Source: Psammoneis japonica (lineage: Eukaryota). Taken from it: a stretch of 64,000 nucleotides of DNA. The stretch is from the NCBI GenBank assembly GCA_008632985.1, contig QPGO01000155.1, positions 124,001-188,000 of the forward strand, read 5' to 3'. How positions within the stretch are numbered: the stretch's first letter is position 1; every line of letters starts with the position of its first letter. Shown in pieces: positions 3,930 through 47,758 of this stretch. The notes under the pieces were generated by a model, which did not search any database, was not told the origin of the DNA, and worked only from the letters and a program-made list of their open reading frames with translations. The position numbers were made by a program, and so were the translations under genes.

Positions 3930-5819
3930 TCATGTTCGGAATGCAAATCTGACAAGGTTCTTTTGCGTGACCGACATCTTTTCGGCACTATCTGTGTTAC
4001 TACTCCCACTACAACAATTGTCTTCGTAATCGGAATAGTCGCCGTCAGAACATAGACCCAAAGCAGTTTGAGAAGACGAACCGTTCTCACTGGTTGGTGG
4101 CTCTGCAGTGATTATATATGACTTTGACGCGCTTTCCGTAAATTGTTCTGGCTTTGTTGAATCGTCGCTGTCTGTTTTTGCAGTCGCACGCGGGCTCTCA
4201 TCCGTTTCCGCGGTAGCGGGCGAGGATTCAAGACTTGGTGATTTGACGGTCTGCTTGTGAAGATTATGTCCTCCGGTATCAGTCTCGCCTTGTACATTTT
4301 CCTTTTCTCCATTCAAAGTGCTGCTGTAGGGCAGAGTCCCGCTTGTGTCATTCGTAGAGGCTAGTTCATCTCGGTCTGACTTGTTTGCATTACCAATATC
4401 GGCAACGGTGCTTGTTCCAGCGTCTTGCTCCACTGAAGTATCAACAGCATCAACCTTACCAGGGACAGTTCTCCATTCTCCAGCCAAAGTAATACTGCTG
4501 GACAGTGAAACCTGATTCAGCAGCCCTTGGCACGGCCAAAGTATCTCCAAGATTATCCGACTCGTTGATGGGACCTTCCATCTATTGTCCAGCCAAGCCA
4601 ATGACACCGGGAAAATTTCCGCATGACTCACTCGTTATCAGGAGGCAAAGATTCGGAATCTGATTTTGCTGCCATGCTCTCCTTACTGAATTCAGCGACC
4701 AGTTGGAGCACCGAGGTGAATCCAGCATTCTCCGACTCGATGGTAGCTTGCAAACTTTCTCCATTTGTACTTTGAAGAGTCTGTTGTCCATTTGCTTGGA
4801 CGTGTGCATCAACAGTTTGTTCACGAGTCAATTTTATACTTTATCGTCAACCGGATCGTCAACAACAATGTCCCTTTCTTCCGACACACTCACTATGGAA
4901 ATGAGTTGAAATCCAGCCGTGGTTTTACTGTCCTTGTTGTTCTTATCGTTGTCAGCATTTTTCGCAGTGGCATGTAGCATCGACTTCATCCACACTGTGG
5001 CTAGTATTGCACTCAACAACACCATCCGTAGTGGCAGTAGCATCTGACGACGACGACGATTCGGACTTGCTTTCTTCTGTCACAATAGCAGCATTGTGTT
5101 CTTCGTGCTTGTGCACTGCAGATATAGCTGGTGGGTACGACGGTTTCCATGACAACATGCTCCTTATCACTGCTCCCGCTATTGCTCGTACGCATACGTA
5201 TTGGAGATGTCTCATTGTTGTTTTATTCCTCCTGAATACGTAAACACTCGTGCTCGACTGGCACAACACACCCGACAAGGCCGAATCAACATCGCTGGCA
5301 AAACAACAGACAGGAGGTGTCGCATGTGATCCAAAGACTTCTACTCGAATCTGTTGTTGTTGTTGGCTGGTACTTTTCTGCATTTGATCTTCTTGCGGTG
5401 TGCGTCGAACATACGAAGCAAACGACAAGAGCTCTTGATCGAATCGTGAAGAGCATCTTGTGATACGTGACTTGTCGGGAGTTTTGATTTTGATTTCTTT
5501 TCATGCGGAGATTGATCGGAAACAGCGGCAGCAGCATAAGTGCTTTCACCACTCACTGACTGAGAAATGTTCTTGCTGTAGCACGGCATGTCTCTCCAAG
5601 ACGCCTTCTTGTCCATACGTGGCAGTTGTCAATGAAAGACTGGTTTCTTGTTTTATTAACTCTTTTTCTTTTTTTCAATCGTTTCTTTGCCGCAATAAAC
5701 TCGGCTTTTTTCTTTTTCAAAAGTGAAACAGCGCTTTTCTTGTGGGCAGCCTTGCGTTCGGCGATACCGTTGTTGCGGTCGGTTTCCTTTTGCTTTTTTG
5801 ACGTCTTTTTTCGAGCCAT
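3930..5819 (-). CDS. Hypothetical low-complexity protein (basic N-terminus, Ser/Thr/acidic body), broken into several frames
   Basis: Chain of minus-strand ORFs from MARKKTSKKQKE (5819) through 4952-5428, 4834-5043, 4628-4831 and 3930-4631; no recognisable domain. Confidence 0.4.
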
Positions 5820-6230
5820 GGTAGAGTAGTGGTTGTTGTATGTGTATGCGTATGGACTGCGGTTGTTGTCTTGTACCGGAATGGGTAACAGCAGCAGCAG
5901 CAACAACAACAACAACCAACACTGAACTGTTTCTGTCGATGTGCGCCTTCGCTCTTGGCGTTGGGCGGAATGTTCAAACAGCGTACCCTTTGGTACAAAT
6001 GCTACGTAGAGAGTGGCTACGTACGTATTTTCTACGAGCGAATCTTAGCGGCGTATAATTCTACGCACGTTTATACCAAGACGGCATCTTGCACTCGCTT
6101 CACGACAAAACAGAGCACGAAATCACAATCGTGACAGCAACAACAGCGGCAGTAGTCATTCCTTCCACATTGTTTCATTCATTCGTATTCATCGTTGAGC
6201 CAACCACCACCTTCATTGTAAGAATTCATC

Positions 6231-8269
6231 ATGAGGCGCGCAATGGGACGAAAGAGTAACAAACCAAAGGTACGATCCACCGGAGCAAACAGAACATTCA
6301 CACTGCGGCATGTTGACTTCGGCATGAAACGTGCACCGGTGTTCAAGATTCCGTATTCCTTGATTCTTTTTTGATCAATCTTCGGGACTGGTTAAAATAG
6401 GAATGTTCATGGCCGACTGCGAAACCCAAAATCGAGAAAAGAAATTGAAAATTGCATCCAACTAGTTGAATGATGAACTGTGGCTGTGCTATCGTTATTT
6501 CTGGATAGAGATCCTCTTGATATCCCGTATCGCCATGTATCGATATGATTGCTTCTCCTATCGATACGTTCTATCGCGAGAGACGAGAGAAATACGGACA
6601 CAATCAGAACGAATGAGAGGCAGATGTGTTTCTCGCCAGCAACATAACCAGCAAGAATACTATCGTTGTTTTGGAAATTTACTTGACGAGAGAACCGCAC
6701 TCACACCTCATTCGTGTGTCTCTTTTGACAGAATGACGACGACGGAAAAAGGGAGTCCGCAAGGCTCCCGCGGCGGTCTCGTCCATGTCCATCCCGGCGA
6801 GTCAGGCCGCGGCCTTGGCGGAGAAACACCGGCAGCAGCAGGCTCAGCAAATGCAAGCGCAGCAGCACCATCATGGAGGAGTCAAGCAAGAGACGGAGCA
6901 ACCGTCAATTGCTGTGGAACGACCAACCGTGTCGACTCCCTCTGGAGTGGAGCAAGTGCACATGGTTCCCCGGGGATCTCCTCCTTCGGCTCTCAAGGAG
7001 TTGCCTCCACTCCGCGATGCGTCTCCTGCCAAAAAGGAAGAATTGTTTATTCAGAAATTGCAACTCTGCGGAGTTATTTTCTCATTTGACGATCCCACCT
7101 CGGACAAGCGTGGTAAGGATATGAAGCGACAGACGCTACTAGAGTTGGTGGACTATGTCAATACTCCTGCCGGACAAAAGATTTTTACCGAGAGTGTCAT
7201 GGGCGACCTGATGGCTATGGTGTCGGCCAATGTCTGCCGCGCCCTACCACCCGCCACGGACGATTTTGATCCCGAAGAAGATGAACCCGTCTTGGAACCA
7301 GCCTGGCCCCACTTGCAAGTGGCGTATGAATTCTTTCTTCGCTTTATTGTCAGCTCGGAGGTCAATGCCAAGGCTGCCAAAAAGTATGTCGATCAAAAAT
7401 TTTGTCTACAACTGGTGGAACTCTTTGATAGTGAGGATCCGAGGGAACGGGATTACCTCAAGACCATTTTACACCGCATCTATGGAAAGTTCATGTCGCA
7501 CCGTTCCTTTATTCGTCGCGCCATTTCCAATGTCTTTTATCGGTTTGTATACGAAACGGAAAGGCACAATGGTATCGGAGAGTTGCTCGAGATTTTGGGA
7601 TCCATTATCAATGGATTTGCCATTCCGCTCAAGAAGGAGCACTTGCACTTTTTGGCTCGTGCGTTGATTCCTCTCCACAAACCAAAGTGTGTCTCGTTGT
7701 ACCACCAGCAGTTGTCCTATTGCATTATTCAGTACGTGGAAAAGGACGCCGACACGGCCATTCCCATTCTCGAGGGATTCTTCAAGTGCTGGCCATGGAG
7801 TTGCAGCGGCAAGCAAGTCATGTTTCTCAATGAACTCGAGGAGATTCTTGAACTGCTTGGAGCGGACCAGTTGGCTCAAGTCAGCACGACGCTCTTTACC
7901 AATTTAGCTCGCTGCCTCGATTCGGATCACTTTCAGGTGGTAGAGCGTGCCTTGTTTTTGTGGAACAATGAGCATCTTGTCAATAGCGGCTGTCTATCGA
8001 GCCTTAATGCCAAGACGGTCTTGCCCATTATCTATGGGCCGCTGTACAAGAATTCGTCGGGACACTGGAATGCAACGGTGGAGGGGTTGGCTCAGAATGT
8101 GCTGAAAATGTACATGGAGTACGACTTGGTCCTTTACGACCAGTGCACGGCGGCATACTTCAAGGAAGAAGAGGAGGCCAAGAAGAAGCTAGAGGCCATT
8201 AGTAACCGATGGGCGGCGATTGAAAAGGAGGCCGAGGCCAATATGCATGCCGTCACGGCATCATCGTAG
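6231..8269 (+). CDS. PPP2R5: Protein phosphatase 2A regulatory subunit B' (B56 family)
   Basis: ORF 6785-8269 has EEDEPVLEPAWPHLQ, LFDSEDPRERDYLKTILHRIYGKF, HNGIGELLEILGSIINGFA, HFQVVERAL. Probable exon 1 at 6231-6269 with GT-AG intron 6270-6731; joining needs one extra A in the A-run near 6746. Confidence 0.95.
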
Positions 8270-8655
8270 ATATACAAACGCACGGGAGCTGTAGTATAGT
8301 TCTAGTTAGGATGAAAACAAGATATATAGTTTGAATCATACATTGGCTTTGCGTGTTTTCAGTCGCTAGCAAGGCATAGCCTACGGTAATACTCTCTATA
8401 GAGGGAGTTGCGAATCGAGGCGTCGCGTCGGAAGACAAGCAAATGGCGACGTTCTTTGGAAAGGTTATCATGCTCTGCTCTGTTGTTTCACGCTACGCTG
8501 CCTCTCGATGTTTCGCTTACCTCTTAACTGTCGCAGTTCCCAGCGAAAGATTAGAAATACCAGGTACGATAAAACACATAAAATGAATTCGAAAACCGTG
8601 GTTATTTCTGTTTCAACTCTCACTAAAGGGCCGAAATAGTTTTGCTCTGGATCAA

Positions 8656-9129
8656 TTAGGAACAAATTTCGACATCAAAATCGACTGACACCATACGAGT
8701 GTCATCGTTGAAGATGTGCTGCTCAAACTCAGTGCAATCCCATTCAAACCCCCAAAAGTAGGAGCAATGCTTGACGTAAACGCAAGTTGCAGAGCTCGCC
8801 CTGTAAGACTGGTCCACCAAGTCCTCATCGCCATCTTGCAAGTCAATGACAGTAGCGCGAAGATCAGGAGAAAAATAAGCGACACCCACACGTCGACGTT
8901 TGCCACAGTTGTTCTTGATCTTGATGATGAGCGGGGCGATTTCGGAGACTTCGATGGGAATGCATTTGCATCCGTCGAATAGATCCTCAACTGTTTCAGG
9001 CAAATCGCAGGTGTAAGAACTGCCTGCGGTGGTCTTCTTTAAGAATTGCTCCACTTCATCGGCTGAAATGGCAACCAAGCTGCCGCAGAGGCCCAAGGCA
9101 AAAAGAAACATGGTAGAGAAGAGTTTCAT
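8656..9129 (-). CDS. Small secreted Cys-containing hypothetical protein
   Basis: Signal-peptide-like MKLFSTMFLFALGLCGSLVAISA followed by ~135 aa with several Cys. Confidence 0.6.
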   Translation of the reverse strand: MKLFSTMFLFALGLCGSLVAISADEVEQFLKKTTAGSSYTCDLPETVEDLFDGCKCIPIEVSEIAPLIIKIKNNCGKRRRVGVAYFSPDLRATVIDLQDGDEDLVDQSYRASSATCVYVKHCSYFWGFEWDCTEFEQHIFNDDTRMVSVDFDVEICS

Positions 9130-9621
9130 GGTGTGCAGTATCGGTATTCTCAAACGCTGTAGAATAACGTTAGATCAAGATTGTGAGAATAGCAAAGGCA
9201 CATCATTCTGTCAGTTTCTCGCTTCTCCAGGAGTCGTTCATGACTCGTGCGTCGGGTGGTGCGGAGAAATCCGATGACTTTCTGTTGATCAAGTGCCGGT
9301 CATATTCTCGTTTTGCGGCGACTGTCAATACAGACTGTACAGTGTGCATAAAGTTTGAGTCATTCGCGCTTCATGCTGTGCTTCTTTCGCTTGTCGCACG
9401 TACTGTACTTCTTATGGGCTCGGGTTCAAAATTTTCAATTCGATCGATCGGTTCGAGGCGCGGTGTTTTCACTGTGTGTGGAATGCGGCACAAGGGAGAA
9501 GACAAGAGCTTTTAGTTCGCTTGTAAAGGCAACGAATGAATGAGCTCTATCTAGGCATGACCCACAAAACAGTAGCACAAGTTTCTTCACGTACAGCACA
9601 AGCCACTACAACGTCTTCTGA

Positions 9622-11878
9622 CTACCGTCGACGTCGTCGAGGAGGTGGTGGCATGGCCACCATTCCGTGAATTGGTGGAAGACCAACTGGTGGCACGGGG
9701 AATCGGTGCGGTGGTCCAATCGTAGCATCAGCCCTGCGACTTCCAGAATTCGCACCAGTAGGGTTCTCGAGAATACTATCCACATTGATTTGAATACCAT
9801 TGTCTTCGACTTGATCTCGTGATATAGAATGGCCCAACGACCCCGTTTCTGGCATTAAACTTTGTTTCCGAACCTCTTCTGCCGCCTTTACACCCGCCTC
9901 GCGCATAGCTAACGCGTCATCTTCTTCTGCGTTAGAATACAACTTGCATTTCTTACACTTCTTGTGATTGCAGTGAGGCTGTTGGCAGAAGTGTGCGTAG
10001 CCCACATTTCGTGGGATTTCCTGTCGGCAAATGTAGCAAATTAGAGTTCGGCAAGAACATGTCATTTTGTTGCATCCGTCCGACTTGACAAACTTTTTGC
10101 CGCAACCCGGCTTGGGACACGTGCGAATCTTGGCCGCAGAAATCGCCTCCTCCACCTTGAGTCGACCCTTGGTTTCATTCTTTTTCTCTACTTCGTCACA
10201 CCGCAAAGGTATATGAGGCTCTTCGCCACACTTTCGGCAGGACTCATACAAGCAGTCTTGCACGGGGCACGCGAAAATCATTTGGGTGGAAGGTAGCACC
10301 GCCTGATAGCCGCACTTGGGACACGTGCTACACGACAAAAGACAAGTAGACATACACGTGAGACACCATGCGTACCAAACAATTACCATACAGAACAACA
10401 ATGACGTACCATAAGTCTTCAATTCCCGCCTTGTCTACTGCAGCTTGAAAACATAGCTCGTCGTACTTGGTCAGTACTTTTTCTGGTAGCGCCTTTCTCA
10501 AAAACTGTTGATCAAATCCCGACGTGCATCCCTCGCCATACATGCACTTGAGTTCCAACGCCGGACTGTTGGTACTCTTATCCATCCCCAAATTCCCTTG
10601 TCCAAAGACTTGTTCTTCCGCAAAGCGCCTGATACAGTCTACACAGAACAAATGCCCTTCTGTCTTACACGATATCATTTCTTCCATTGCCACGTCTGCA
10701 AAGCAGCATTGGCACTCCATGGTGGATCCCGTCATTTCTGAAATCTTGCGCGCTCGAGCTCGCTGAATCTTGGCACTTGCTTCTTCCATGTATGTGTGAT
10801 GCTTGTGTTTGACGTATGCAATCTCGTCCTTGAGAATAGGATCGGTTACTGGAGTCGATGCCTTGGCGGATTTGCGCGGTCGTTTCAAAACACCGGTAAC
10901 ACCTTGTAGCTTTTTGACTCGCGCCGTTTGACGAAACGATAGACCCTGACCAGCAAGAGCCCCAACAAGTGCATTATACTGCTTTTCTTCCTTTCCCTCA
11001 TTCTCTGCTGGCACTGCCGACTTGCCCATGACTGCGTTACATACATTGTTGTGAAAAATAGCGTAATGCTGCTGACATTCGCCTGCGAGATGACGCTTGA
11101 TGCATTCCTTGGACAAGAAGGGAAAATCCGCCATGAGTGTCATGATGGCTTGTTCAATGTAGTGTGACGTTGGCGTAAAAGACGACGGTGACATGTAGTC
11201 AGTCTGGCTTGTTCCGTTTAGCCGCTTGATCAGAGCATCGTGCGGATGATGAGCACCCGCACCACCGTCCTTTGATTTTGGATAAGACGGTCCCTCTGCC
11301 AATTGAAGCAAGACAGATTGAATCATTGCTTCATGCGTCAAAGTAGAAGGGTGGTTGTGAAATGCACGAGCTACTCCGGCTTGTTCCAAGAGAGTCTCGC
11401 AATGAGACATGTCAATATCAGGAAACACCTCAAGTACTCGCTGCTTTGGCGTCAACGATTCGGCAACAGCAGCGCTGGCTCTTGGCTTCAAATGTCCGTC
11501 ATTCCGGTTGCTATCTTCGTCACTTAATACCACGATATCGTCCGTAGAGTGGCTGTTCTGGGGTATTGCTTTTCGTTTTCGATTCGTGCTTTTAGGTGCC
11601 GATGAGGAAGTGTTGTTTCTACCATAAGTTTCATGCTCGTCAATTACAATTACGTCATGGTTGTTGAAGCCACTGATATCAGCGTTTTGATTCATCGGCA
11701 ACCTCGCTACTCCATCTACAGCAAGCCCATCTTGAGCACGATGTTGTGTATGAGTATTACGTCTCCGTTTTCGTGATACTGTGCCCTGTCGCTGTTGCTG
11801 CCGCTGCTGATTTGAACCATCTACACGTACTCCCTCATCAGAATCAGAGTCTACCAGATCTATGACTTCATTCGCCAT
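9622..11878 (-). CDS. RBR-type E3 ubiquitin ligase, RNF216/TRIAD3-like
   Basis: RING1 CQCCFAD..GHLFCVDC, IBR CPKC..CPVQDC..CRKC..HIPLRC, RING2 CPKPGC..KSDGCNKMTC..ICYICR; intron 10328-10409 (GT..AG) joins the two ORFs. Confidence 0.9.
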
Positions 11879-12191
11879 GGCTTATGCTGTATCGTACGGC
11901 CTCTTCTTGCTATGTCAAAGAGCTTTGTGCTTAAACTACGTCGTCATGGTAGTTGTGTATGTTGATGTGCGCAATGCTGTGTTTTTTGGGTGGAGCGAGG
12001 GAAGGAAATCTTGGGAGTTCGGAGCTCGTACAGTACAGGGGGGACAAGGTCCGTCCGTCTCAAGCCAATGTTAGGTCTACGGTACTGTAGTGCAGACGCA
12101 CACTCATTAGACCCTATTTGGTGAAGCAGAAGAATCATCGAGTACAGCATCATGTAACCTTATTGAACATCGAAATACCATGTCGGTTGAG

Positions 12192-13121
12192 ATGGAAAGC
12201 ATTCTCATTACGGGAGCAAACGCTGGCATTGGAAAGGAGTGTGCTCGTCAGTTGTCGCGTCTTCCACACACCCAGAGGATTGTCCTGGCGTGTCGCAACA
12301 AAGACAAGGCAGAAGCCGCACGTACGGAACTTATGCAGCATGATGCTTCTTCCACGGTCTCTTTTGAAATTCTCATTGTGGACTTGTCCGATATAAAGAG
12401 TGTCAAGAATGCAGTCCATGAGCTGTCAGCTCCAGTGGATGTTGTCGTTATGAACGCGGGTGGATTGGGAGGAGAGCATCCTGAAAAACTCACTGAGGAA
12501 GGCGTGACATCCATTTTTGGGTCGAATATTCTTGGCCATGTGGCTCTGTGTGATGGACTTGTTGCCGCAAAGAAGCTGAATCATACAGCAATCTTGGCTG
12601 GTTCTGAGACAGCCCGTGGACTTCCCTTTATGCATTATCCTGTTCCAAAGCTAGCGTCAGGATCGGTCGAGGAATTCAAGACAATATGTGACGGCTCCTT
12701 CTTTGGAGAAGAAAAAGATACAAAAGCTATGTACACGTATACCAAGTGTCTCGGCGCTCTGTGGATTGGATCTGCCGCTCGTCAGTATCCGCACATTCGA
12801 ATGGTCACCATTAGCCCCGGAGCGACTGCCGGAACCAGTGCAGCAGATCAAATGCCACCCTTGGTGCAATTCTTACGAAGATTCCTGCTATTCCCAGTAA
12901 TGGAGTTGCTTGGAAATGCGCACGGCCTCGAAACGGGTGCAAGTCGTTACGTTGACGCAATCTTGGACAAAGAGGATGCCTACCAGACGGGACATTTTTA
13001 TGCCAGCAACGGCCCAAACAAAGTGTCTGGTCCTGTAGTGGATCAAATCGCTTTCCTTGATGATTTTGGTAATGAAGAGTATCAAGATCATGCCAGTGCT
13101 GCAATTCATTCCTTTCTCTGA
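12192..13121 (+). CDS. Short-chain dehydrogenase/reductase
   Basis: ITGANAGIG Rossmann motif, LACRN, NAG, YTYTK (YxxxK). Confidence 0.9.
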   Translation: MESILITGANAGIGKECARQLSRLPHTQRIVLACRNKDKAEAARTELMQHDASSTVSFEILIVDLSDIKSVKNAVHELSAPVDVVVMNAGGLGGEHPEKLTEEGVTSIFGSNILGHVALCDGLVAAKKLNHTAILAGSETARGLPFMHYPVPKLASGSVEEFKTICDGSFFGEEKDTKAMYTYTKCLGALWIGSAARQYPHIRMVTISPGATAGTSAADQMPPLVQFLRRFLLFPVMELLGNAHGLETGASRYVDAILDKEDAYQTGHFYASNGPNKVSGPVVDQIAFLDDFGNEEYQDHASAAIHSFL

Positions 13122-14504
13122 CCCAGCATTCTCCTTTAGCAAAACGAAACTTGGTTGGTATGTCAATGACTAGAGGGCTTTGCATCTAATGGCACTGGTT
13201 TACCTATCGGAAATGGATTCATGTTGATGAATGCGCGATGCGGGGAGGGAGCCGAGTACGAAGTACTATCACATGCTCACGCTCAGTGGATTCAAAGGAT
13301 TTGATGGGGTCTTCAAGTGAGAATGTCGTTCATCTGAATGGTCTTTCGAGTGTAGGAATAGCTCTGAAAAGATGTGACAGAGTAGAAAGGGGAAGAAACT
13401 TTTTTATGCACTACGAGTTCGAATAGCGAGTATGAATATTGGAAGAGCATTAATGACAGCTTTGCCGCTTCTTTACCCCATGACCTTTCCTAGCGGCCAA
13501 GAAGGCGGAGTGTAGTGTTGCTACAGTTACCGCGTTACTGATTCTTCAGGTCAGAAAGAGGATAAAGGGAGCTTGGTTCACCGTCCGACAAGTAGACTTT
13601 GCGAAACCGTCCGATCCGTACTTGAAATCACCTAAGGCACTTGACACCAATACAAATACGCAAATCCGAATAGGTAGCTCCCATGGCGGAAGCCATTCAT
13701 GATGCTGTTCCGCACATTGGCAAGAGCATTGTTCAACAGGCTGCGGGATTTGGTACCGCAGACGAGAATTGACGTGGAAGTTCTCTACCTCATAGATCCA
13801 GTGGACGCGTGCGCATGTCGCAACAGGTACTCGACTCTGACAGCAAGAAGTTGCTTCTCGACCAGGACGAAGATCAGGACGTGGCGAAAGGAAAGGAAAA
13901 TGCATGCAGGTAAAATTCTATAAGCCGAGGACCAACTGACTCAAGCTAACTCGGTGAAGCCTGTGGGCGTGTCCAAGCGACTCAGAACTTCACCGGCTGT
14001 CAGCAGCAAGCAGCGATGGAGGACAAAGTGCAAATATGGAAAGGATTAGGAAAGCGCATGCCTACCAGTCTTGCGCTCAAATCGAGTTTCTGATGCGAGC
14101 CATGAAAATCTTCGAGATCGACATTCATCGCCCGATCGTTTTGAAGCTACTCGAAGGATGCCCAATTGGTGGGGAAGAAGAGGGGGCGAGCCGTTTGTAG
14201 CTTCTCGAGAATGCTGCTTGGATTCTGCATGACTGAATGCGAGGGCTTCCTCATCACTAAAACTGTTGTCGACATGATGCAAATAATTCGTCTCAACGGA
14301 TCATCTTTCTTTGGAGCTTGAAACCGAGATCTCTGAAGAGAATCCGTTGACAATTATCCCTCATTTTCGGGTGATTGAATTTTGGTTGGAAGCATTTTCA
14401 ACATGCGCATCTGTCAGAGCAGGACGTCGATGATGATGCCACTGATGTGGTTTGGGACGAAGACGAATCCAAAGAAGCAGATGTGTGGACAAGGAGGTCA
14501 GATG

Positions 14505-16184
14505 TCAGCTGCAATGGCTCATCTCCTTCGTTCCGTGCGTGGCTTGGCATCGCAGTGCAGCACTCCCGGATGTTGGGGTCGGCGTGGAGATTGCATCATG
14601 TCTGTTTGACCAGAGCGTGGAAAGCACCGAGGCAATGGTTCGAAGGAGCATAGAGCAAGAATGTTTGAGACCTAAGATCCGTGTCTCAAGGACTTTCTTG
14701 GCGTGCGTTGTAGTTTCAGTGATGTTCCAAGCAATTTTTGAAGCGCTGAGATACATTGTTTCGCGACTGCCTGTTGTCTTCTCCATTGACCGAACAATGT
14801 CGGCAACACTTTCTTCAAACTGAGACCCCATTCTCTGATCCAAAGTGCACCAAGCCCCTTCAAACACCCATGATGAAGTCACTTCCCCGCGCCTTGATCG
14901 TTCTTCCAAATTCCCCTGCAAGTCACTGTCTTGAGAGCTGTTTAGCGACTTGTTCGTTCCAGTGGGAACTGGAGCTGTGGCCGCTGTGGGAGCCGGAGCT
15001 GCAACCGGTGCGGGAGCCGGAGCTGCAACCGGAGCGGGAGTGGGGTTGGTGATGGGCACCCAAGGGTTTTCTTCGGCCGCTCCCTTGGCCCTCTTGTGAA
15101 AGACGCATTTGCCCAAAGCACGAGGAGGGAGCATTCCCAAGCATGTTCCCAGGAGGCCATGAAGTGTCGCCATGGAATCCCTTTTTTTCCCATGAATGTT
15201 GCCTGCAGAAAAGTCTGGGAGAAGCATGCCGTTGCTGCGGCACTTCTGGATGTTGGCCTGGCAGCCAGCGTTGTGCGAGCAGGCGTTCATGCCCACGCAG
15301 TTCAGCACATCGTAAGATTCGTCATGACCAAGGTTTTGGATGTCCGAGCAGTTGCTGACAAAAAGGATGCCTGCAAACTCGTCTGAAAGAAAAAGAGAAG
15401 CAAAACTTTGAGGGCCAGGAGTCGCACAGCAGCAGTCGCAAGCACGCACGTCTCACTCACCAGGAGGCACTTCAGTCAAGGCAACCTTGCGTTTGGCTTG
15501 AATGACAACATGCAAGCATTCACAAGTGATCTTGCGGGGCTTCCGGCCCATGTCAATTGCCTGAATCGTGTCTGTGACTTGATCCACGACCGGGATCGCA
15601 GACACTTCCATGTTCTTGCCGGCGTTTTCAAGCCCCTCGAGCTGGTTTCTGGTGTCACGAGTGAAAGCGACGATGTCAGCTTTGATGCCTTCCTCGTGTC
15701 TTTTGGCCTTCTCTTTCTGATTTCGCAGCTCTGCGATTTTTGCTCCACAGTGATGCGAGTCCCCACCGGTCGCTTGCGTCATGATCTCCAGACGCTTGCT
15801 TGGGTCATCTGCAATTTCATGAACGAGCTTGGTGTCCTCATCGCCAAGAGCGACCATGGCGAACTCCTTGGTGCAGTTCATCAAATGCTGGGGACCAATC
15901 ACGCAGTCTTTGGAAACCATGGGAGGGCTTCTGACTTCTGGCGTAGAGTCGGCACGGCGGTGACGAGCAATGCCACGAGCGGATCCCGGCGTTCTGCGCC
16001 ACCACGTTGCGGCGTCCTGAAATTCGGGTTCATCGAACCGGCGTGCCAAAGTTACGGTTGTTGGAGCGCGATGGCTGCGGAGTGCTGTACATGGTGAGAC
16101 GTCGTGCAGCTTATCACAGACACCCGCTGTGGTCATGGAGTTGTGAGCTGTGCTCTGTGCTCTGTGCTCATCATCTGCATTCAT
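14505..16184 (-). pseudogene. Two-exon gene of unknown function, TpA-hypermutated
   Basis: ORFs 15453-16184 and 14505-15449 join in frame through a 78-bp GTGAGT..TTTCAG intron (15383-15460, PP-D-EFAG); only two Tyr in total, Cys/His-rich, PAPVAA repeat. Confidence 0.55.
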
Positions 16185-19121: not shown

Positions 19122-20661
19122 TCATTCCGGGATACGAACAATCGAGAGCTTCCGCTGAATGTGAGGAGGACGCGCCTTCGATGCCAATGGTTCATCCTGT
19201 TCCTCTTCTTTCTTTTGGTGAAGATAGAAGCCAGCCGATGCTGCCAAGGTAGCAACTATGGTCGCAACCGCTTTTCTGGCGGCACCAGGCCCTCCCCACC
19301 CAAGCCTTGTCTGTAAAGCCCCCGCAATCAATCCCAATACACCACCCGTCACGATCAAAGTAATCTCGTCCTCCTTGAAAACTGAAACGGGTACACGATA
19401 AGATCATGAGAATGAGATGAGATGATTGCAATAACGTTTACTCCTCCAAATCAATTCCACAATACTTCAATCACTTACCTGGATGCAGCAAGTCTTCAAA
19501 ATCAGTCGGAGACAATTGCTTCAGACGACTTGCAAGAGTGTTATCAATGTCAAGCTGCTTGTCAACATACCAATGAAGCTCAGGGTAGTCCCTTCGATTA
19601 CGCGCAACCTTTTGAATGGCAGCCACTGCTGCGGATAGAATATGCGATGGTACCGGAAAGGGCAGCTGACGACGAAGAAAAGCATAGAGCTCGCCGTCCG
19701 TTCCTCCATTTGACAAATCGTCCAGCAACTGAGAAGGCGTCAGGACTCGTTTCTTCATAAATGCTCCAAATTCATCTGATACTTCTAGCTGCCGACTTTC
19801 AAACAATCCTTGAATCTCAAACAGACCAGCAACCGATACTGGCTCTGCCGGTTCGAACAGCAACTTTATTGCGATCCAATTGGTAACATAGCCCACCAGT
19901 GCACCGGCGGCTGGGAGTGTCCACGGCTTTGGTGCAGCAGCCCACGCGGCAGTTTGGAACAAGCCCAGCAGAAACCCAAACCCAAATCCAGAATTGACAA
20001 GAAATTCAAGCTCCACTCGTCCCACTTTTTGAAAAAGATCAACGAGAACCTTTTTGTCTCGCAGAAAGGCAGACAGAACAACGTGATGAAGATCCAGGAC
20101 CTGTTCGACTTCACCTTGCAGATTTGACAAGAGCCTAGGAAGTAGAATTGGAAGCACTGGCTTGAGAAGTGCATACCATACATGACCACAGTCCTGTCGT
20201 ATTTGTTCTTCAATTGCTGGAAGGAGTAGTCTGGACAGATCCCTTGGTTCCAACCTACTAAACGCCTCATCAAGACTTAGCAACCGTTCCGTGACCACAC
20301 CTACTAAACGTGTCGCCATTTGCTTTGTTTTCGTAGGAACCACGCCTTGCCACCCAAAGAGGCCATACGGAGTATCTTTCCACCGCTGCAAGTCAATTCC
20401 CATGTATTTAATAGGGTAAAACAACATTTTCACACCCATCCAGTTGGTAAGAATGCCGACAAAAGCAGCAACGCAGGGGATACTTGCGTATTCGATTGGG
20501 CGTTTACGAATCTGACTTTGTATTCGAAAAATCGTTGTATTTGGCACAGCAACCGTTGCTGTGCTGCGTTTAAGGAAAGCATTAGCTTTGCGCCTTGTTC
20601 GTTTCACATGTGCAAGCCGATACAGGCCGAGCGGGTACAGTCTTCTTTGTGACGAGATCAT
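19122..20661 (-). CDS. DUF445-like membrane protein
   Basis: TNWMGVKMLFYP, GWQGVVP, GYVTNWIAIKLLFEP, FEDLLHPVFKEDEITLIVTGGVLG after removing intron 19382-19478. Confidence 0.8.
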
Positions 20662-21757
20662 GTTGTTGTGATGGTAGCAATTGTGGCGCTTTTCTTTTTT
20701 TAATAAAGTGCAATGAGAAACCCTGAGTTATCAGTGTCCTCTATAACAGACTGGGTAGTTGACAGTGGGGCGACGGCGTTGGGTCATTCGTCTTGTCATA
20801 TGCGTCGGAGTCGTCTGGTCTAGCTCTGATGGTCCGAATGTTGCTGCGTTATTTTATTGTGTGCGTGTGCTGATGAGAGCGATGAGGCGTGCGTGATGTG
20901 TGTGCGGGAGCGGCGGTTGTGATGCGCGCACTTTTGGGTCGCGCCACATCATCATTGGCACGACTAACATTGAATTCACACATTCGGAAATAAATAAAGA
21001 TGAATGTGTGGTCGCGCAACATGACCCTACCAGTCGTGGAAGGCCGATTAGTTTGTTTCCAATTGATCCGTGCTCGGATTGAACGAGCCAGTGGATTGGA
21101 CCGGAGCACAGCAGAGTTAGCAGCCTTCCTCTTTTTTTCATGCTTTTAATGGAGTTCTTGCTTTTTACCTGGCGGGCTCTCGTTGCAACGGAGACTCTTC
21201 AGCTCAATCTCTTGGACGACAAGATCCGTGCTTCAGCCACCAAGCACAAAGAGCTTGCGCAGTGCCGATGGCTGTGCCGAACCAGCTGATGCCGGTCCAT
21301 CGCTTCCATTCTCGAACGCACTCCTGCTTGTCCACGTCTTGTCCAATGATTGAGAGGACATGAAGAGAGAAGCAGGTCTGGCCTGAAGCCATGCCGAAAG
21401 TGTTGAAGCTCATGACTGCAGCAGCACAATCAGAAAGCTGAATGTGCTCTGGGCCGATGATGTCACAAGTGTCCTTTTTCATTTTGGGTTGTCACAGCCA
21501 TTGTGTCTGAGTGCAAGAACAATCCACAGAAACAACAAAGTGTCTGTTTTTGCTTGTCTTCTAAGCGGCCAACAAAGAGCGCAAGGAGAAAGACAATCAA
21601 AGACGGATTTGAAGGTGTCGAACATGTCACACCTTGAGATCTTTGTGAGAAGTCCAAGGAAGCTCGTCAGACTTCCTGGATTCCTACAAGCACTTCCATG
21701 CTCGCATTTTCTTCCTTGCAAATGCTGTGCGTTGGGCTGTCGCTAAAGTGTGTTGTA

Positions 21758-21991
21758 AGTTGAGACACAGTCCCACAGCTGGGTGGGATGGATAAGACCT
21801 CGGAGGTTGGCAGCAATGTGAACAGCAACAGAGGTAAACAGACGCTTGTTCAAAGTCGTTGTCTAAAAATTATGACGAATGTCATTGCTTCTGTTTGAAT
21901 CAATTTTGTGATGAGCTGATCATTTCGAAGAGAAAATCTGAGTCTGGGTTGCAGTCGTGAGATGCGACCAGAATGACGTTGAGTCGCGACT
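21758..21991 (-). repeat. 3' LTR of element 1
   Basis: Direct repeat of 27933-28166, next to PPT. Confidence 0.95.
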
Positions 21992-22012
21992 CTCCCTCTC
22001 AACCGAGAGAGC

Positions 22013-25000
22013 TCACCAGCCCACAAGAGCCTTTCTAGCCGTGCGGAACGCATCGGTCCGTAGTCCCTTCGTGAACTGATCGGCCAGTTGCTCTGGAGTG
22101 CTGACAGGTTGGACATCGATCTCCAATTGTTCGACTTTAGTCCTAAACCAGTGGTGCGGGGTGCCGATGTGTTTGGTTCACGGAGACAACTTGGGCACAC
22201 GTGCGAACTTGAGGCACGCGGAGTTATCTTCACACACAACGGACGCAGGTGGGACATTCTGCGCTGCAGGCGAGTCATCGGTGCCTTGGGTTGTGAGCTC
22301 AAAAGCCTTGGAGTGAGTCGTGACAGGGTTTTGGCGGTCAGACTTTCCGAGTGCGTGGTGGTTGAGCTCCTTGAGAACTTCACGAACAGGGATGAGATCA
22401 CGCGTGGCTTGAGAAAGTGCGACACACTCCGCTTCCATGGTCGACAATGCTGCAAGAGTCTGCTGCTTGGACACCCAGACAAGCGGGCAGCCGGCGTGGC
22501 AGATGAGGCATCCAGTCCTGGACTTGACAGAAACTGGGTCTTGACCATCTTCCACACCAAATGACCCCGCGAAGTCAGAATCGACGTGACAATCAACTCA
22601 ATGATCTTGCGCAGGCTTGAGAATGAGACCTTCAGCAGCAGTTGCTTTGAGGCATCGGAGCATCCGCTTCACTGCAGCAGCATGGGACGCTCGGGGTGCA
22701 AACGAGAATCGAGCTGCTTGATGTGTGGCACATGCAATGTCTGGCCGGCTGTTCGCTGCCAAGTGCATCAACATTCCAACAACTGAGCGACAATCGTGGG
22801 GTTCATCAAAAGGCAGGCCGTCCGTGTCTGCACCAACAGCCGCAGGTAGAGCTGGAGCAGATGCTCCATTGCAATCCTGCATCTGTGCGGTGCGCAGGAC
22901 CTTGTCAATTAGACCGGGTTGAGTGAGTAGAAATCGACCCTCGGAGAGCTTTTCGATCTTGATGCCGAGAAAGTTGCCGACTTCTCCTTCGTCTCTAAGT
23001 TCAAATGCGTGGCGATGTTCATCGTCGGAGACTCCCAACTTGCGAATTTCGGCTTCTAGAGCTTCAGCTGAAGCTCCAGCAAAAACGGTGTCGTCGACGT
23101 GTGCCACACACATCGTGCCCTCTTTGAAACACAAACAGGGATCCATGGCTGAAGGTGCCCATCCGCGCTCGGTTAAACCAGCTCGTGACTTCTCGCAGAA
23201 GCCCTTGGGAGACTGTTTTAGGCCATGTGGTCCTTTCAAAAGTTTGAGAACCACATTGAGTCCCGACCTTGGTGCAAATCCCTTCGGCAGTGTTGTGTGA
23301 ACTTCCTCGGCGATGTCAGCTTGGCAAAAGGCTGTGGCATGGTCCACCTGACGTGCAGTCCATCCCTCCTTTAATGCCGCAGTGAGCATGAGTCGGATGC
23401 TGGACCATTGCACAACCGGCGCACAGGTTTCGAAGTGGTCGACTCCTTCTTTCTGTGAATCACCGCGGACGCAGTGTCGGGCCTCATGCTTGAGAGGGGT
23501 TCCATCTGGGAGTCTCTTGAGCTTCAGTGCCCATGTGCCTGGAAGTGCATTCACACGCGGCTGACGCTTGACTGCTTTCCAGGCTCGACAATGTGTGAGT
23601 GCGTTGACTTCAATTTTCATCGCCTTGATCCATTCGTCGGCGTCCGGACCTTTCAGAGCATTGTGTGACGAAGGCATGTCAGGGTCCTTGGTTTTCTTGC
23701 TAGCTGCGCAGGCTCGTGGATCGCCGATGTTGATGGCACCACTGTCCAAATCCGTCTCTCGGACACGAGGCTCGTCCCTTGGAATTGGGGGTGACATTGT
23801 AGATGTGTGTGGCATGAGAAACTGCCATGGGCCACAGGGAGCTGTCAATTCCCCCCTTCCAGTGGATTGATGCATGAAGCAACATCGCTCTCGCCATGTT
23901 GGAGATGCTGCGGATGCCCCGCTCTGTGACGCCGTTCTGATGATGGGCGTTGGTTCCACAAAAACGGAGACGTTGTTCATGTTCTCGCGTGTGTTGTGCA
24001 AAAGCGTTGGCCTTGAAAGCACCACCATCGGCAAGAAATTCTTGGATGATGACGCCGTGGTCCAAAGCATGTTTCTCAAATGCTTGCTTCGCTCGCATCG
24101 TCTCAACAGCGGAGAAACCCAGTTGGTGCTCGACCTGGACATAGCCAGAGGCGTGGTCGACAAAGACACAACCGCCCTTGAATTGCTTGGACGTGGCTTT
24201 GCCACATGAGTCGAAGGTGCGGCCCAAAAGGCGGGACTCAAAATGATCAACGCTGACAGCCTGACCCGGTCGAAGATGGTCAGCACGAAGGGCCCCGTCG
24301 CGTTCAGGGACTGTCGACTTGTGAGTAGATCCAAGGGAGTGTCTGTGACCTTTGGCACACTCGCGTGCCTCGCATCTTGGGTGGTCACACTTCGCTGCGG
24401 ACTTGAAACGGTTCGACAGGAACGGAGCTGCGCGGAGAAGTGCTTGGACGCGACCAAAGTTCAAATGGCCAAAACGGGCGTGCATTTCGAGAAGAAGCTT
24501 TTGGCCTGCCGTGAGGTTTTGATTCTCCTCGTTGAGGATCTGTAGATTCACTTGAGGAGCGGCAGATGCGCCCTTGGTCATCGACGCAACAGGCAAGTCG
24601 CTTGATGGATGACATGGCACGACCAACTTGCCTGTCCCATCAATGTGCAAACGGAAAGTGGTTTCATCGCCCTCACACTTCCCACGCACCCCCTTCTCTT
24701 CGTTGAAGAGGCATTGAGGCGACAGCAGGCACTGACGGGCTCCAGGAACGCAGCATGCCATGGTGTTCAGTTGGATGGCAGTGCCACTCGGCGTTGTGAA
24801 CACCCATGCAACCGGACCGGCACCCTGGATGGCAAGACCGTTGGCAATCCCATTGATCTGCAAGGGTTTCTTGGGAACAGTCATGGGCCCCGTAAAATCA
24901 TCTTTGTCGGGGGCAACAGCTAACGTGGCACCAGCATCCATGACGACCGTGAGAGCCTCGTCCGACAGACCGATGAGTGCCTGCGGATCGGATGCAAGGA

Positions 25001-27770
25001 GGTCGGCTTGAGATTGTCCGGTGAGCAGTCGGATGGTGGAGGCATTGTAGACGACTGGTCTGACACTTGCTTCCTCCAACAGTTCCACAGGATCTTGAAA
25101 ATGGGCAGTGTCCACGATGTGATTCGGCAGACAGAGCTCGTCAAACCGGAAGAAATCCGGGCTGAAGTCCTCAAGAGCGTCGAAGAAACATTTCTGGTCA
25201 TCGAGAGGTTCCAGTTCCTCACAGGTGTCAAAGAAGGCTGATTCGTCCATCGCATCAGACCGTTCAGCGACTTCTAAGCTCTCCCAGTGGGCCTTGAGAC
25301 GAGTGCTCAGTGCGTGTGACGGATGGCGCGCGACAAACTCGGTGAGCACTTGCGTGCCTTTGATCCTGTGACATTCGAACAGTGACCCCGTATCCAACAC
25401 TATCCGGTCATCTAGCTCTTCCACAACATGGTAGACTTGAGAGCTGGTGGTCGAAAAATGACTTGGTACGTTCGAGAATGGATGCTCGGGCTGTTGACCG
25501 GCGTAAACTGCTGACCATGCCATCACTGCAACGGACAGGACCATCCAGGAGGCTGGAAACCCGTGCAAAGTTGGGAGTTTGCGCTGGCGGCGTAGAGCTC
25601 GAGGGATGCATGGGATCGGAGCAAAGCAAAGATGCAGTGCCGTTTCCCAAAACATGGCGGCGAGCCAGAGTGTGAATGGCTTGACTCGTCCCAAGAGTGA
25701 GCGACGCAAAGTGGGCTCGTCTTTGACGTCCTCGTGACAATCATCCGCACCCAGGACCTCTGGATCGTAGAAATCGAAGCCACGACACGCAGCACACGGA
25801 GGTGAGTCGTAGCATGCGTCTTCAAAGTGTGCGTCATGTTCAAGGATGAGATCTAACTTTGTGTCGTCTGACAGCACATCTGTCAAATGTGCGGGAGCAT
25901 CATAGAACTCATCTGGATGCTTGACAGAGTACAGCTTCGAGGCCGGAAACAACTCAATAGCCGGTGGTTTGTTTTCAAAGGTGGAGAAAGCGTCGGAGCA
26001 TTCGCAGAAGTCATCGGCGTCTTCGGGAGTGACAGTCTCAACCACGATGGGAGACACGACTGGATCCACGACTGAGGTGAGTAGAGGTGGGCTCATTTTG
26101 TTGCAAACCACCTCAGCACTGATGACTGCATCGCTCTCCCTCTCGGCCAAAGAATCCGGAGTAACAACAATTGCAGTGGTGACAGGGGCGGAACAGAAAT
26201 CCGGGTCGGCAATGGCATCTGTAGCCGCGCACCACATTCCCGTGAAAACCAACTCGTTGGGGTCGGATTCGTCTCCCTCTGGTTCCTTGGCAGTCTGAGC
26301 GGGCGGACCCATGGGCACGCCACTGTCTGGATCAGCAACGGAAGACAAATTCCCGGCTGGGGTCTCCTTGGGAGGGCGCCTGTGGTCATCGGTGTGGTCC
26401 GCGGTAGAGTGCTTCTGGTGGATTCCAGGTTTGTCGGCACCCTTCGCCGTGCACGTGGCACACCACTTCCATTCCTTGCCATTCTTATCCTTCTTCGTTT
26501 CTCCGTCAAATTCAGTGCGCCAGGCAGCGATGGGTTGCCTCTTCTTCTTGGAAGGGTTGTCTGCAGGCGGCGGATTGGGAGGAGGATCGTCGCGCGGCGG
26601 TTTGGCGTTGCACTTTGGGCACGTCTTCTTGGTGCACCCCTCGAGACCGCAACCACAACAGTGCTTTGTCTTCCCAGGGTTGTCCGCAGTCGAAAGATTG
26701 CTCTCGGGTAGCTTGGCAACCAATGCAGGCCACTCCCCGTCCTTCACGAGCTCATTGTGTTGCTCCTGAATCCACGCAATGATGCCGACCGGTCCGAGTG
26801 TGTTGTGATCGCCATCGGACACGATGTCAGCAGGATTCTTGAGGCGGCACTTGCGTTCCACAGTCTTGACGTCGTCGAGCTTGTTGTAGACTTGCCGATT
26901 GAAGTGTTCAGAGGACGTAGAGGAGATCTTGTGGAGTGGCTTGGAGCTTGTGTTTGCCGGAAGCGCGCAGTCGGTCTGCACAATTTTCACGATGCGAAGA
27001 GCTTCGGCAGCAAAGTCCGTGCAATCCTCGCCGGGACAGTTGGCCAAACTGAGGTCTTCCAGCTGCTTCTCAGCCGTCTCAATGTCCATTGGAGCGCCAG
27101 TGTTGCAAGTGTCGAGAGCCATCATGAACAGAACAGATCCAGGGCAGTCTTGGCAGTCCGAGAGATGGTTGAACTTGGTCTCGATTTTTTCGCGAAAGGT
27201 GTTGGCGATTCTTGAGTGAACGAGAAGTTGAGAGAGCCCGATGTCGTCAAGCTCGATCTCGTTGTACTTGGTGTCATCGGCAGCTGCTTTCCTGGCCGTG
27301 TGCTCGTTCACGAGATCGGTCACAGTAAACTCGTGAAGATGGTCGAAGACACATTGAACCTTGTCGTCGCTGTTCTTGACATGGCAGAACGTCTGCTGAC
27401 CATGGGCTTCTGCTAGATCTCGAATGGTCTTGACGAAATGGCCCTTGTCAAGCTCGTTGATGGGACCGTCCGAAATCTCAAGTCAACCATTGAACTTGGA
27501 AGTCATTGCGGAAGCTTGTTGATCGCGGAGAGATCGTTCCATTGAGTCGAGAGCCTTGGGATGACGGCGCTGAGAGGCGAGTCGGCAGGTTCTGTTGTTG
27601 GATTGTTCGCAGCTGTTGTTGAGTTTGGAACCACCAATGTAAACCCCGTGGGTTGGGTGAATTCCACCACGTAACGGCTTGGTTGGAGCCGGAGGAGCGG
27701 TCGCCGCGGCGTTGGCGGCCATTGCGTCGGCAAACGCCTTCGCCAGAACAGCCGGATCGATGGTGGCCAT
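22013..27770 (-). pseudogene. gag-pol of element 1
   Basis: Gag from MATIDPAV (27770); zinc knuckle; protease MDAGAT; HARFGH; integrase VSVDH..FVDHASG..HHQNGVTER; RT ARHCVRGD, HGLKQSP, HVDD; RNaseH DSDFAG..SRTG, EDNS, ADQFTKGL. In-frame TGA at 27483, 22598 and 22178; deletion plus frameshift near 23775. Confidence 0.93.
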
Positions 27771-27932
27771 GACAGAGAGTGCAGTGTGAGAGGTTCTTGT
27801 TAGAGTGAAGACGAGAGAAGCGAGAGAGACTCAGCTATTTCCCGGGTTTGCTTCAAAATCAAAAACCGAAAGCGTCCGTGACGATGACTCGGTCAGGAGC
27901 TCTCGTCAACGCGCAAATTGGTCTCTGTGACC

Positions 27933-28166
27933 AGTTGAGGTGCAGTCCTGCAGCTGGGTAGGATGGACAAGACCTCGGAGGTTGGCAGCAATATGAACAG
28001 CAACAGAGGTAAACAGACGCTTGTTCAAAGTCGTTGTCTAAAAATTATGACGAATGTCGTTGCTTCTGTTTGAATCAATTTTGTGATGAGCTAATTGTTT
28101 CGAAGAGAAAATCTGAGTCTGGGTTGTAGTCGTGAGATGCGACCAGAATGACGTTGAGTCGTGACT
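27933..28166 (-). repeat. 5' LTR of element 1
   Basis: Direct repeat of 21758-21991; abuts a PBS-like ..ctctgtgacca on the + strand. Confidence 0.95.
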
Positions 28167-28608
28167 TTGTAACCAATCCCAACATTCGACGTCTTGTTCT
28201 GCAACGAGTGCAAATGTCTTATCAACTTTTCCATAGTTCGTTTGGAACGTCGTCCCGGCAAGGTGCTAGCTACTTGTAGACTTGCGAGTGGTTATGGTGT
28301 TTGTTGGGAAGAGGAATCGATATTTCAGGCTCGCATCGGGATTGTGCTGGATGAAAGCTGTTTCGGAAGCCAACTATCCACAAAACAAAAAAGACTAGGG
28401 CCCTAACCAGCCACTGCCTGCATAGTACAGGTTATCAATTATCTTTTTGTTTTGCGCGTGCGAAAACTCTTATTGACATCGATAAGTACAGTAACAAAGG
28501 TTTCTTTACAAGCTTGAGCTTATCTTGCGCAGTCCACCATGATGTAATGATTGCGATTTGTGCAATCTCTATGTCTATATTTCATAACGTTACCTACGAC
28601 TACCGCAT

Positions 28609-30455
28609 TCAGAATCGATTCTTGCCAAAACATCGTGATTCAGTGTGTCGTGACAGTGACTCTGCCTCCTCGCATGCATGTGCGTCTCTCAACGAGTCGT
28701 CATTGTAAGTAGCATTTGCTTTGTCCGATTGAGAAGACGCAACGTTAGTAGTGGTATTAGCTTCTCCTTGCTGAGCATACAGGGCGATTGCCATTCCCAA
28801 GGACCATTCAACCTCGCTCCCTTCCACGAGAAATGTAAAGGTAATATCTCGAGACGACGGGTGAAAGCCAAAGCCATCTCGAAGTAGTGTCACCATGTAA
28901 ACGCTTTCCAAACATCGATGCGGCAAAACTTCTGCTCGAGTGTACGCGTGGGCGGTATGTTGAATATCTTCCAAATCCTGTGAAAATACACATCGATAAG
29001 AATACACAAGTGGTGAGGGGTTGTGCAATCATATTGAGTGAACATTTGGATTCGAACGAGACGAATTGTGAACTTACGCCATGCCAACTCCTTGAGCATA
29101 GTCCGTCCAAGCATTGTAAAGTTCTTCAATACTGGGATTAGGCCATGATAGATTCAATTCCTCATGCGCTTCTTTGGCTGGGTGTGACAGCTCCCGTAAG
29201 CTGTCCAACGTAAAAAAGTACAACGACATTGCAAAGAACTTCCCTCGAAGCGGTGGATGCTCTGTTCCTCCAACCACTCGGCCATCTTCCTCGTGGTGTG
29301 GGTGAAAAACCTCTTCGTGGTGGGGAATGAGTCTACGTACTTGCATTACACATTCGTGAGCCTCGCCAGAACCAACGAGTGTCCACCCATTCCACTCAAT
29401 CTCGTAGCCTTTGAAAGTACACGGATTATCAATGATTTTTTCTGCACAGGAATCAATTGGCATTTGTTGTTGTAGCTTCTGTGCATCGTTCACCCATGTA
29501 TTCCAAAGTCGTTCTCGAAACTGATCAGCTCCATATGATAAATATGACGTTGAGAAGAAGTCGTCTCCCTCTAGACGCTTCGGAAGTCCCTCGGCCACGG
29601 CGCCTCCGTCAGCTGGGCAAGTTTTACTCTGAACATCATTGGCATCACACGATTCAGGGTACGCCTCGTTACTGCGTCGCTCACTTTCAGGTAAAAAGAC
29701 AATTTGTGTCGAGCTGCCGCCCATATCGAGTGCCCCCAATGGCCCATGCAAGTTGACATCATGGCTGCTCTCGCTGCTGCCAGCTTTGGTATGCATGGTG
29801 GCATCAATGATTCCTTTCAGGTAGTTCGCCGCTACTGCTCCATAAAACCCCTCCAAGTCTCCGCTTAACGTCGCGATATCGCTTCGTTGCAAGCTGGAGA
29901 ACACAAATGATTCCTGTTGTATTAGTCCCTCATACAAGGCATCGTATACTTCTTCTTGGTCTGCTTGATCCAATAATCTCATTCCTGCAGTCGCTTGGTA
30001 GTGACTCGTGTTGTTGAATGATATGATAATGGTATAATCTCAGCAGCATACTCAAAAACCGGTAGCAGATGCAGAGCCACCTCCTCCGGAGACACCGGTT
30101 GGTCCCCGACACGGCCAAATGCAGACAATGGTGTATCGACTCGTGATGAGCCACGACGAACACATTCACTGTCCAGAGTTGTACTATTGGTAACAAATTC
30201 AAAGATATGTAGTCTCGATCCTGTTGACCCACCGTCAATTATCTGTTGATGGTAGCATGATACAGTAGTAGGAAAGAACAAGAAAAATTGAGAAAGCTCT
30301 ATGAATCTCGAATCTCGACACGAATCTACGAAAGAAATTGTCTATCCACATGGCGTTACGACTCATTCACCCCGCATTATGCAATACGAATGATGTTTAA
30401 AAAGGCTTTCAGTGGAAATCAAGCTCGAGTCTGAGTTGTAGCGACGTGACGCCAT
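28609..30455 (-). CDS. GDA1/CD39-family apyrase (NTPDase), several apparent frameshifts
   Basis: IDGGSTGSR (ACR1), SGDLEGFYG (ACR3), LDMGGSSTQ (ACR4), VEWSLG (ACR5); ends approximate. Confidence 0.85.
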
Positions 30456-41539: not shown

Positions 41540-41886
41540 TGTGGGAAAGTAGCCAGAATTCTAAGATTCGTCTGCACTTTCAATGATTAAAAGCTGTAAT
41601 TGCGATACAACAATCAATCAGTAACTTTATTGTACCAAAAGTTGAGAGGTGATAATCAGTGCGTTAGAAAGATTATGAGCAGTTTTTATGAGCAGATGCA
41701 GCTGCCATCTAAAGGAAACGCGAAGTTAAACGAGCGCGAAGCTAGGAACAAACATCGCATTCGTGACTCGGCTTCCGCGGGATTCGAGACTGAGCATCGC
41801 ACACGGGGTTCGAATCTTGGATCTCTGATTTGAATCGTGGAGGTCCGATGTTGTTGTAAAAACATGCAAATATGAATATTGTCACA
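41540..41886 (-). repeat. 3' LTR of element 2
   Basis: Direct repeat of 47759-48105. Confidence 0.97.
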
Positions 41887-41929
41887 CTCCCTTCAACAAT
41901 GTCGGGTGGAATGATGACTCGAAAACGTC

Positions 41930-47684: not shown

Positions 47685-47758
47685 AGCAACAGCAGAGTAA
47701 AGCAGAATCGAGAGCTTAAGATCGATTGACTCAACTTGTAGATTGCGCAGAGGAAGCG

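Follow-up and report, generated by a model that had tools for sequence, protein, structure and literature searches.

LTR differences in a diatom copia retrotransposon suggest TpA-directed mutation on both DNA strands after integration

The window analyzed here is a 64,000-nucleotide stretch of the Psammoneis japonica genome (assembly GCA_008632985.1, contig QPGO01000155.1, forward-strand positions 124,001 to 188,000), and all coordinates below are positions within it. Self-comparison found one direct-repeat pair between a DUF445 gene (19474-20727) and a GDA1/CD39 gene (29077-30039). The two copies (21758-21991 and 27933-28166) were 234 nt long, aligned without gaps and were 94.0% identical. 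In the LTR-pair alignment the 5-base sequence TTGTA lay on both outer sides (21753-21757 and 28167-28171), showing that the pair borders a single insertion, referred to here as Element 1. A neighboring host gene, for a B56 phosphatase subunit, was 82-93% identical to diatom proteins, which marks the host as a diatom. Element 1 lies on the minus strand, so that the copy at 21758-21991 is its 3' LTR (LTR1) and the copy at 27933-28166 its 5' LTR (LTR2). The LTR termini were AGT...ACT (21758-21760 and 21989-21991), versus the usual TG...CA.

The internal region (21992-27932, minus strand) was assigned to the Ty1/copia type, with gag, integrase and reverse transcriptase, from an RVT_2 match and tblastn homologues. 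Among the long minus-strand frames between the LTRs, one matched RVT_2 (copia-type reverse transcriptase) at E = 9.8e-30. For a 1260-residue frame, every Pfam match was weaker than E = 0.001, gag_pre-integrase among them (E = 0.029). By tblastn, 14 related polyproteins covered the interior from end to end, with gag first, then integrase, then reverse transcriptase. These polyproteins bear gag_pre-integrase and RVT_2, and one is source-named Fragilaria crotonensis, a diatom. A protein search with the 1260-residue frame returned 26 matches, the best with 47-62% identity over part of the length; a copy of the same family was absent from these 26. The reading frame of Element 1 shifts near 23724-23758, and at least one stop (22598-22600) lies inside the homologous frame, yet homology extends to about 22016. 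Element 1 is thus a minus-strand LTR retrotransposon of the Ty1/copia type, now defective, with RVT_2 downstream of integrase, between two LTRs, and with a 5-base target duplication. A putative polypurine tract, proposed from its place and base content, is the purine run GAGAGGGAG (21992-22000, minus strand, written for the element strand), which immediately precedes the 3' LTR.

Element 1 was strongly depleted in TA. Its interior contained 50 TA vs. 300 expected (0.17), with CG at 0.89, CA at 1.36 and TG at 1.30 of expectation; gene regions of the window held TA at about 0.5-0.8. Counts of TA were 4 in LTR1 (17.5 expected) and 7 in LTR2 (18.1 expected), which is at the edge of the TA-poor domain. 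Across Element 1, CG was about 90% intact (0.89-0.96) and TA was 60-80% gone. The domain of low TA and enriched CA and TG spanned about 21000 to about 28100, and took in the left flank (21000-21757, from 250-nt window counts and contig depth). Three 250-nt windows of this flank (21000-21749) contained 5, 0 and 3 TA vs. 15.3, 13.9 and 18.7 expected. The right flank was at background from 28250 (16 observed, 19.0 expected). At 21697-21705 the left flank was covered by a single contig at a depth of 64, so it is single-copy at least there. Compared with the window, this contig, from public run X1, showed a CA/TG difference at 21697-21698 and a CA/TA difference at 21705. These differences are of the same kind as those between the LTRs described below, here between two alleles or strains, and they hint weakly at an elevated rate of new mutation. 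In the Element 1 region (21700-28250), 25 stop-free frames of at least 100 residues were spread over all six frames, and these long false frames probably arise because losing TA also removes the stops TAA and TAG. They could pass for genes, and TA loss also blurs domain detection.

Other TA-poor and repeat DNA was present in the window. A block at 14001-16000 had TA at 0.20 and 0.04 and CG at 0.84 and 0.78 in two 1-kb windows, and its three long frames had no Pfam match. A second copia element (Element 2, 41540-48105) carried TG...CA LTRs at 41540-41886 and 47759-48105. These differed by 10 transitions, each with A/T on the left and G/C on the right; the ten sites lay within the first 95 nt, and five of them were at TA. 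The interior of Element 2 was TA-poor only from about 45000 to 47499 (0-4 TA per 250 nt). Short tandem or dispersed repeats with 71-88% identity were found by self-comparison at 51127-51642 and 52249-53292. The 10-kb block at 54001-64000, which includes a run of N at 58669-58865, had TA at 0.00-0.14, CG at 0.04-0.45 and CA + TG at 1.64-2.02. Nine frames of at least 150 residues from this block gave zero Pfam matches at E = 1e-5 or better. The block resembles old repeats whose TA and CG have both been driven to TG and CA.

Depletion alone could be native to the family of Element 1, and changes in the coding region were therefore polarized with the 14 diatom copia polyproteins as outgroups. Conserved columns were defined by at least 75% agreement among at least 6 homologues, which gave 769 columns; the window departed from the conserved residue at 183. 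At the 32 conserved tyrosines the window had Cys (TGY) 15 times, His (CAY) 11 times and Phe twice, and Tyr was present in the window at just 1 of the 769 columns. Conserved arginines had changed to Cys twice and to His in no case. All six Val>Ala changes had the codon GCA, fitting GTA>GCA. A single base change was needed for 130 differences, and more than one for 52 further columns. The 130 single-step changes comprised TA>TG (38, plus 2 ambiguous), TA>CA (21), CG>CA (11), CG>TG (2), other transitions (17) and transversions (39), with none that created TA. In total, TA was lost 59-61 times and gained in no case, and CG was lost 13 times. Of 91 single-step transitions, 68-70 were A:T>G:C (59-61 at TA, 9 elsewhere) and 21 were G:C>A:T, 13 of these at CpG. 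With TA lost repeatedly and gained in no case, TA is ancestral in the coding region, and CA and TG are the products in the lineage of Element 1.

The LTRs were compared in an ungapped alignment, and differed at 14 of 234 sites, all 14 by transitions. Three doublets were CA in LTR1 and TG in LTR2 (21766-21767, 21774-21775 and 21921-21922). At five single sites one copy had TA: LTR1 had TG and LTR2 TA at 21785, 21818 and 21918, LTR1 had TA and LTR2 CA at 21793, and LTR1 had CA and LTR2 TA at 21952. The three CA-versus-TG pairs and five one-sided TA sites listed in a first-pass annotation of this DNA were thus all present. Three differences were missing from that list: 21765 (LTR1 A, LTR2 G), beside the first doublet, and two of CpG type, 21884 (LTR1 CA, LTR2 CG) and 21987 (LTR1 CG, LTR2 TG). 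A scheme of TA replaced by TG or CA fits 11 of the 14 differences and does not fit these three. As a chance control, 14 transitions were placed randomly on LTR1 100,000 times. Random placement gave a mean of 0.14 CA/TG doublets, and three or more, as observed, at P = 0.00013. Adjacent difference pairs had a mean of 0.78 (P = 0.0043 for four or more), and at least 11 TA-compatible differences arose at P = 0.00001. The five TA singles alone were not enriched over random placement (mean 2.76, P = 0.119 for five or more). The non-randomness of the LTR difference pattern comes from the doublets.

The origin of the doublets was evaluated from LTR counts. LTR1 and LTR2 share 3 TA and 9 CG. If the differences are read as TA losses, four TA sites changed in LTR1 only and one in LTR2 only; for CG there was one single hit per LTR. 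Relative profile likelihoods were calculated with independent hits per LTR and half of double hits invisible. They were 1 for three doublets from TA, 0.18 for two, 0.05 for one and 0.017 for none, so that the LTR counts alone favor an origin of all three doublets in TA about 59-fold over one in CpG. The TA fit requires hit rates of 0.70 and 0.47 per LTR, with three visible doublets on the high side. Deriving all doublets from CpG would require about 32% of CpGs to be hit per LTR, which is hard to reconcile with CG at 0.89-0.96 of expectation. An LTR with the A/T state set at all differing sites had 11 TA (0.56), which is background level and the look of a freshly inserted, unmutated element; the G/C state at every site gave 3 TA (0.19) and 14 CG (1.13). 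For a RIP-like process, a rate was taken from the five LTR singles (5 hits per 76 CA/TG target copies) and applied to 166 CA/TG bases, located in conserved codons that the window retains, at which such a change would replace the residue. This predicted 10.9 TA gains and 0 were seen (P = 1.8e-5), on the assumption that interior and LTRs shared their post-insertion history. The proposal in the first-pass annotation that TA was ancestral at the LTR sites is supported indirectly, by independent lines that include the polarized coding-region totals and the doublet likelihoods.

Family copies were sought in contigs of three public runs (X1-X3), compared with 21600-27900 at 80% likeness; X1 contains the region, whereas only 2 pieces came from X2 and none from X3. 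The family has a high copy number, with 2388 contig pieces and a summed depth of about 3000-12900 vs. about 40-64 for single-copy DNA. Variant places in 21600-27900 numbered 681, of which 579 were transitions, with both directions equally common. No LTR site was among the 40 of these places that were listed. Of the listed places, 37 lay in Element 1, with nearly all family contigs disagreeing with the window. The family had CG and the window TG or CA at 10 of the 37, and the window had CG and the family TG or CA at 4. The family had TA and the window CA or TG at only 2, and the reverse (TA in the window, CA or TG in the family) was seen at 0. Four internal CA/TG doublets made up 8 of the 37; the remainder were 9 other transitions and 4 transversions. 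CpG-type changes dominate the 37 listed places, so CpG decay is active in this copy of Element 1. The listed places are presumably biased against sites that vary within the family, as recurrent hypermutation sites would. At the four internal doublets the family contigs shown agree on one state; the family founder was not TA there when the family spread, and doublets can thus also arise through lineage history. Exact-pattern scans of metagenome contigs and viral contigs returned no other LTR copies. A loose-end consensus of TACG, where the window has TGTG beside LTR2, was set aside as too weak (6 contigs, agreement 0.56).

At insertion, the two LTRs of an element derive from a single template and are identical. 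The differences between LTR1 and LTR2 therefore arose after integration. Read as TA losses, LTR1 has four CA products and three TG products, so that adenines on both strands would have been changed within one copy. We consider it probable that TA was ancestral and that both strands of both LTRs were hit independently after integration. The most likely agent is a host mechanism that changes TA within silenced mobile elements and struck each LTR separately after insertion. Under this model a young Ty1/copia-type element would have integrated into the diatom genome with identical LTRs, and the eight LTR sites would have been TA at that time. A locus-restricted process on double-stranded DNA would then have changed A to G at TpA, giving TpG when the strand read was hit and CpA when its complement was hit, across Element 1 and about 750 bases of the left flank, fading at the right-hand LTR. 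Each LTR would have been struck separately, LTR1 losing 7 and LTR2 losing 4 of 11 putative ancestral TA. Sites struck in both LTRs on opposite strands would appear as CA versus TG (the three doublets), and sites struck in one LTR, with TA kept in the other, as the five singles. Slower, ordinary CpG decay would account for two further LTR differences, with one difference unexplained. The chemistry would be adenine deamination. The first-pass annotation had proposed independent mutagenesis of double-stranded DNA, and this is supported in that the LTRs of one insertion differ, LTR1 holds both products and TA loss reaches into unique flank DNA on one side.

The main remaining doubt about TA as the ancestral state concerns a CpG origin of individual doublets. 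The five singles may be TA losses with at least one doublet derived from a methylated CpG that was deaminated on opposite strands, and we regard this mixed origin as unlikely. It would agree with the two CpG-type single LTR differences (21884, 21987), the ten CG>TG/CA changes private to the window among the listed interior places, the 13 CG losses at conserved codons, the low CG (0.04-0.45) of the old block at 54-64 kb, and the methylation of transposons by diatoms in the available text of PMC9998398. Against it, CG is about 90% intact in Element 1, and the nine shared CpGs are accompanied by one single hit per LTR. One doublet from CpG is about 5.5 times less likely than none. The caveat in the first-pass annotation that the pairs could also come from ancestral CpG stands for any single doublet; an origin of all three from CpG is about 59 times less likely than of all from TA. 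LTR data alone set no direction: each of the 14 differences could on paper be a C>T or G>A change with TA as the derived state, and 13 would then fall at CpG or CpA/TpG. Such ordinary G:C>A:T decay, or a RIP-like process, is nevertheless very improbable: TA is strongly depleted rather than enriched in Element 1 and its flank, conserved codons show 0 TA-creating changes vs. the 10.9 expected, and conserved tyrosines became Cys or His, which is the opposite direction. CpG decay with TA derived had at first been modestly favored, and was dropped on the TA depletion, the tyrosine losses and the zero TA gains.

Two further explanations place the source of the differences outside the inserted copy or before its insertion. 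With 2388 contig pieces, the family is abundant enough to offer differently mutated copies from which the LTR differences could have been imported by gene conversion or recombination. We give this very little credence, as both copies of the 5-base target duplication are intact, which indicates no exchange between elements, and the differences are scattered single sites and doublets without tracts. Gene conversion also cannot explain a TA-poor domain running into unique flank DNA. Least probable of all is editing of RNA or cDNA before integration, by ADAR-like A>I change or by deamination during reverse transcription. ADAR prefers a 5' U next to the adenosine that it edits (Mettrop et al., bioRxiv 10.64898/2026.01.13.699255, Discussion, in the available text), and would leave the same TA>TG/CA signature. 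Editing before integration cannot make two LTRs differ, nor can it deplete TA in flanking host DNA. It could still have added to the TA losses common to both LTRs.

Post-integration mutation at TA shares features with several known systems. Repeat-induced point mutation (RIP) of ascomycete fungi is a transition-only, in-place mutation of repeated or mobile DNA on both strands; its dinucleotide preference involves CA/TG and TA, and it leaks into adjacent unique DNA. Element 1 resembles RIP in each of these respects, with transitions in mobile DNA in place, both strands, the CA/TG/TA preference and leakage into unique DNA. The direction is opposite, as RIP makes TpA from CpA and Element 1 loses TpA (0.17, with 0 gains). 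RIP also depends on duplication and on a sexual cycle. The RIP hallmark of enriched TpA with depleted CpA and TpG was absent from Element 1, in which CA and TG are enriched. Methyl-CpG decay likewise yields TG and CA from one dinucleotide through opposite-strand hits. It cannot explain the loss of TA, and CpG is at about 90% of expectation in Element 1; it appears to operate there at a lower rate, as a minor component. Diatom transposon methylation, as described in the available part of PMC9998398, fits this slower CpG component. APOBEC (C>U on cDNA) and ADAR (A>I on dsRNA) also produce clustered, transition-only hypermutation of retroelements; unlike the process proposed here, they act before or during integration, and can neither set the two LTRs of an insertion apart nor mutate flanking DNA.

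The signature of Element 1 matches the TpA hypermutation of Bigelowiella natans, as far as the available text of the preprint describes it (Mettrop et al., bioRxiv 10.64898/2026.01.13.699255). In mutation-accumulation lines of that alga, 231 mutations were recorded in two integrated viral regions, and 230 of them were A>G or T>C, without exception at TpA. The mutation rate of these regions is about 1000-fold that of the remaining genome, with the process active in some lines only. Reverse-transcriptase and DDE domains are over-represented among TpA-poor coding sequences in B. natans. Adenosine deamination is the mechanism that the authors propose, with an ADAT2-like candidate. By the same text, features in common are TpA>TpG/CpA change on both strands, TpA depletion with CpA + TpG enrichment, and confinement to a domain of integrated foreign DNA with neighboring genes at background. 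The systems also differ. B. natans is a chlorarachniophyte, thus rhizarian, whereas the host here is a diatom, a stramenopile, and the target is a copia LTR retrotransposon with about 750 bases of unique flank rather than viral regions. The evidence here is comparative, unlike that from the mutation-accumulation lines. Specificity here also looks looser than the all-at-TpA pattern described in the preprint (9 A:T>G:C changes outside TA vs. 59-61 at TA), and old blocks in this window lost CpG too. No account of TpA-directed mutation in diatoms was found in the literature, subscription journals aside, nor in the available text of a diatom copia paper (PMC2806351).

TpA-directed mutation of foreign DNA has so far been described in one preprint on one alga only. 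The same signature on diatom retrotransposons would extend it to a major, genetically tractable algal group and would make the mechanism testable. We lean toward the view that diatoms carry a recently active, locus-targeted DNA mutator that turns TpA into TpG or CpA on both strands of integrated retrotransposons and spreads into unique DNA, either shared with B. natans, and hence old in the stramenopile-alveolate-rhizarian (SAR) group, or convergent. The LTR pair serves as a built-in before-and-after control, for a process that would be post-integration, DNA-level, on both strands and independent in copies 6 kb apart. With 11 of the 14 LTR differences assigned to the TpA process, a date from the usual LTR clock (6% divergence) would make Element 1 appear too old; sites differing otherwise than by TA replacement number 3 of 234 (1.3%). 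If diatoms do carry such a mutator, LTR-divergence dating in their genomes would overstate insertion ages several-fold, and LTR pairs such as that of Element 1 would record its action site by site.
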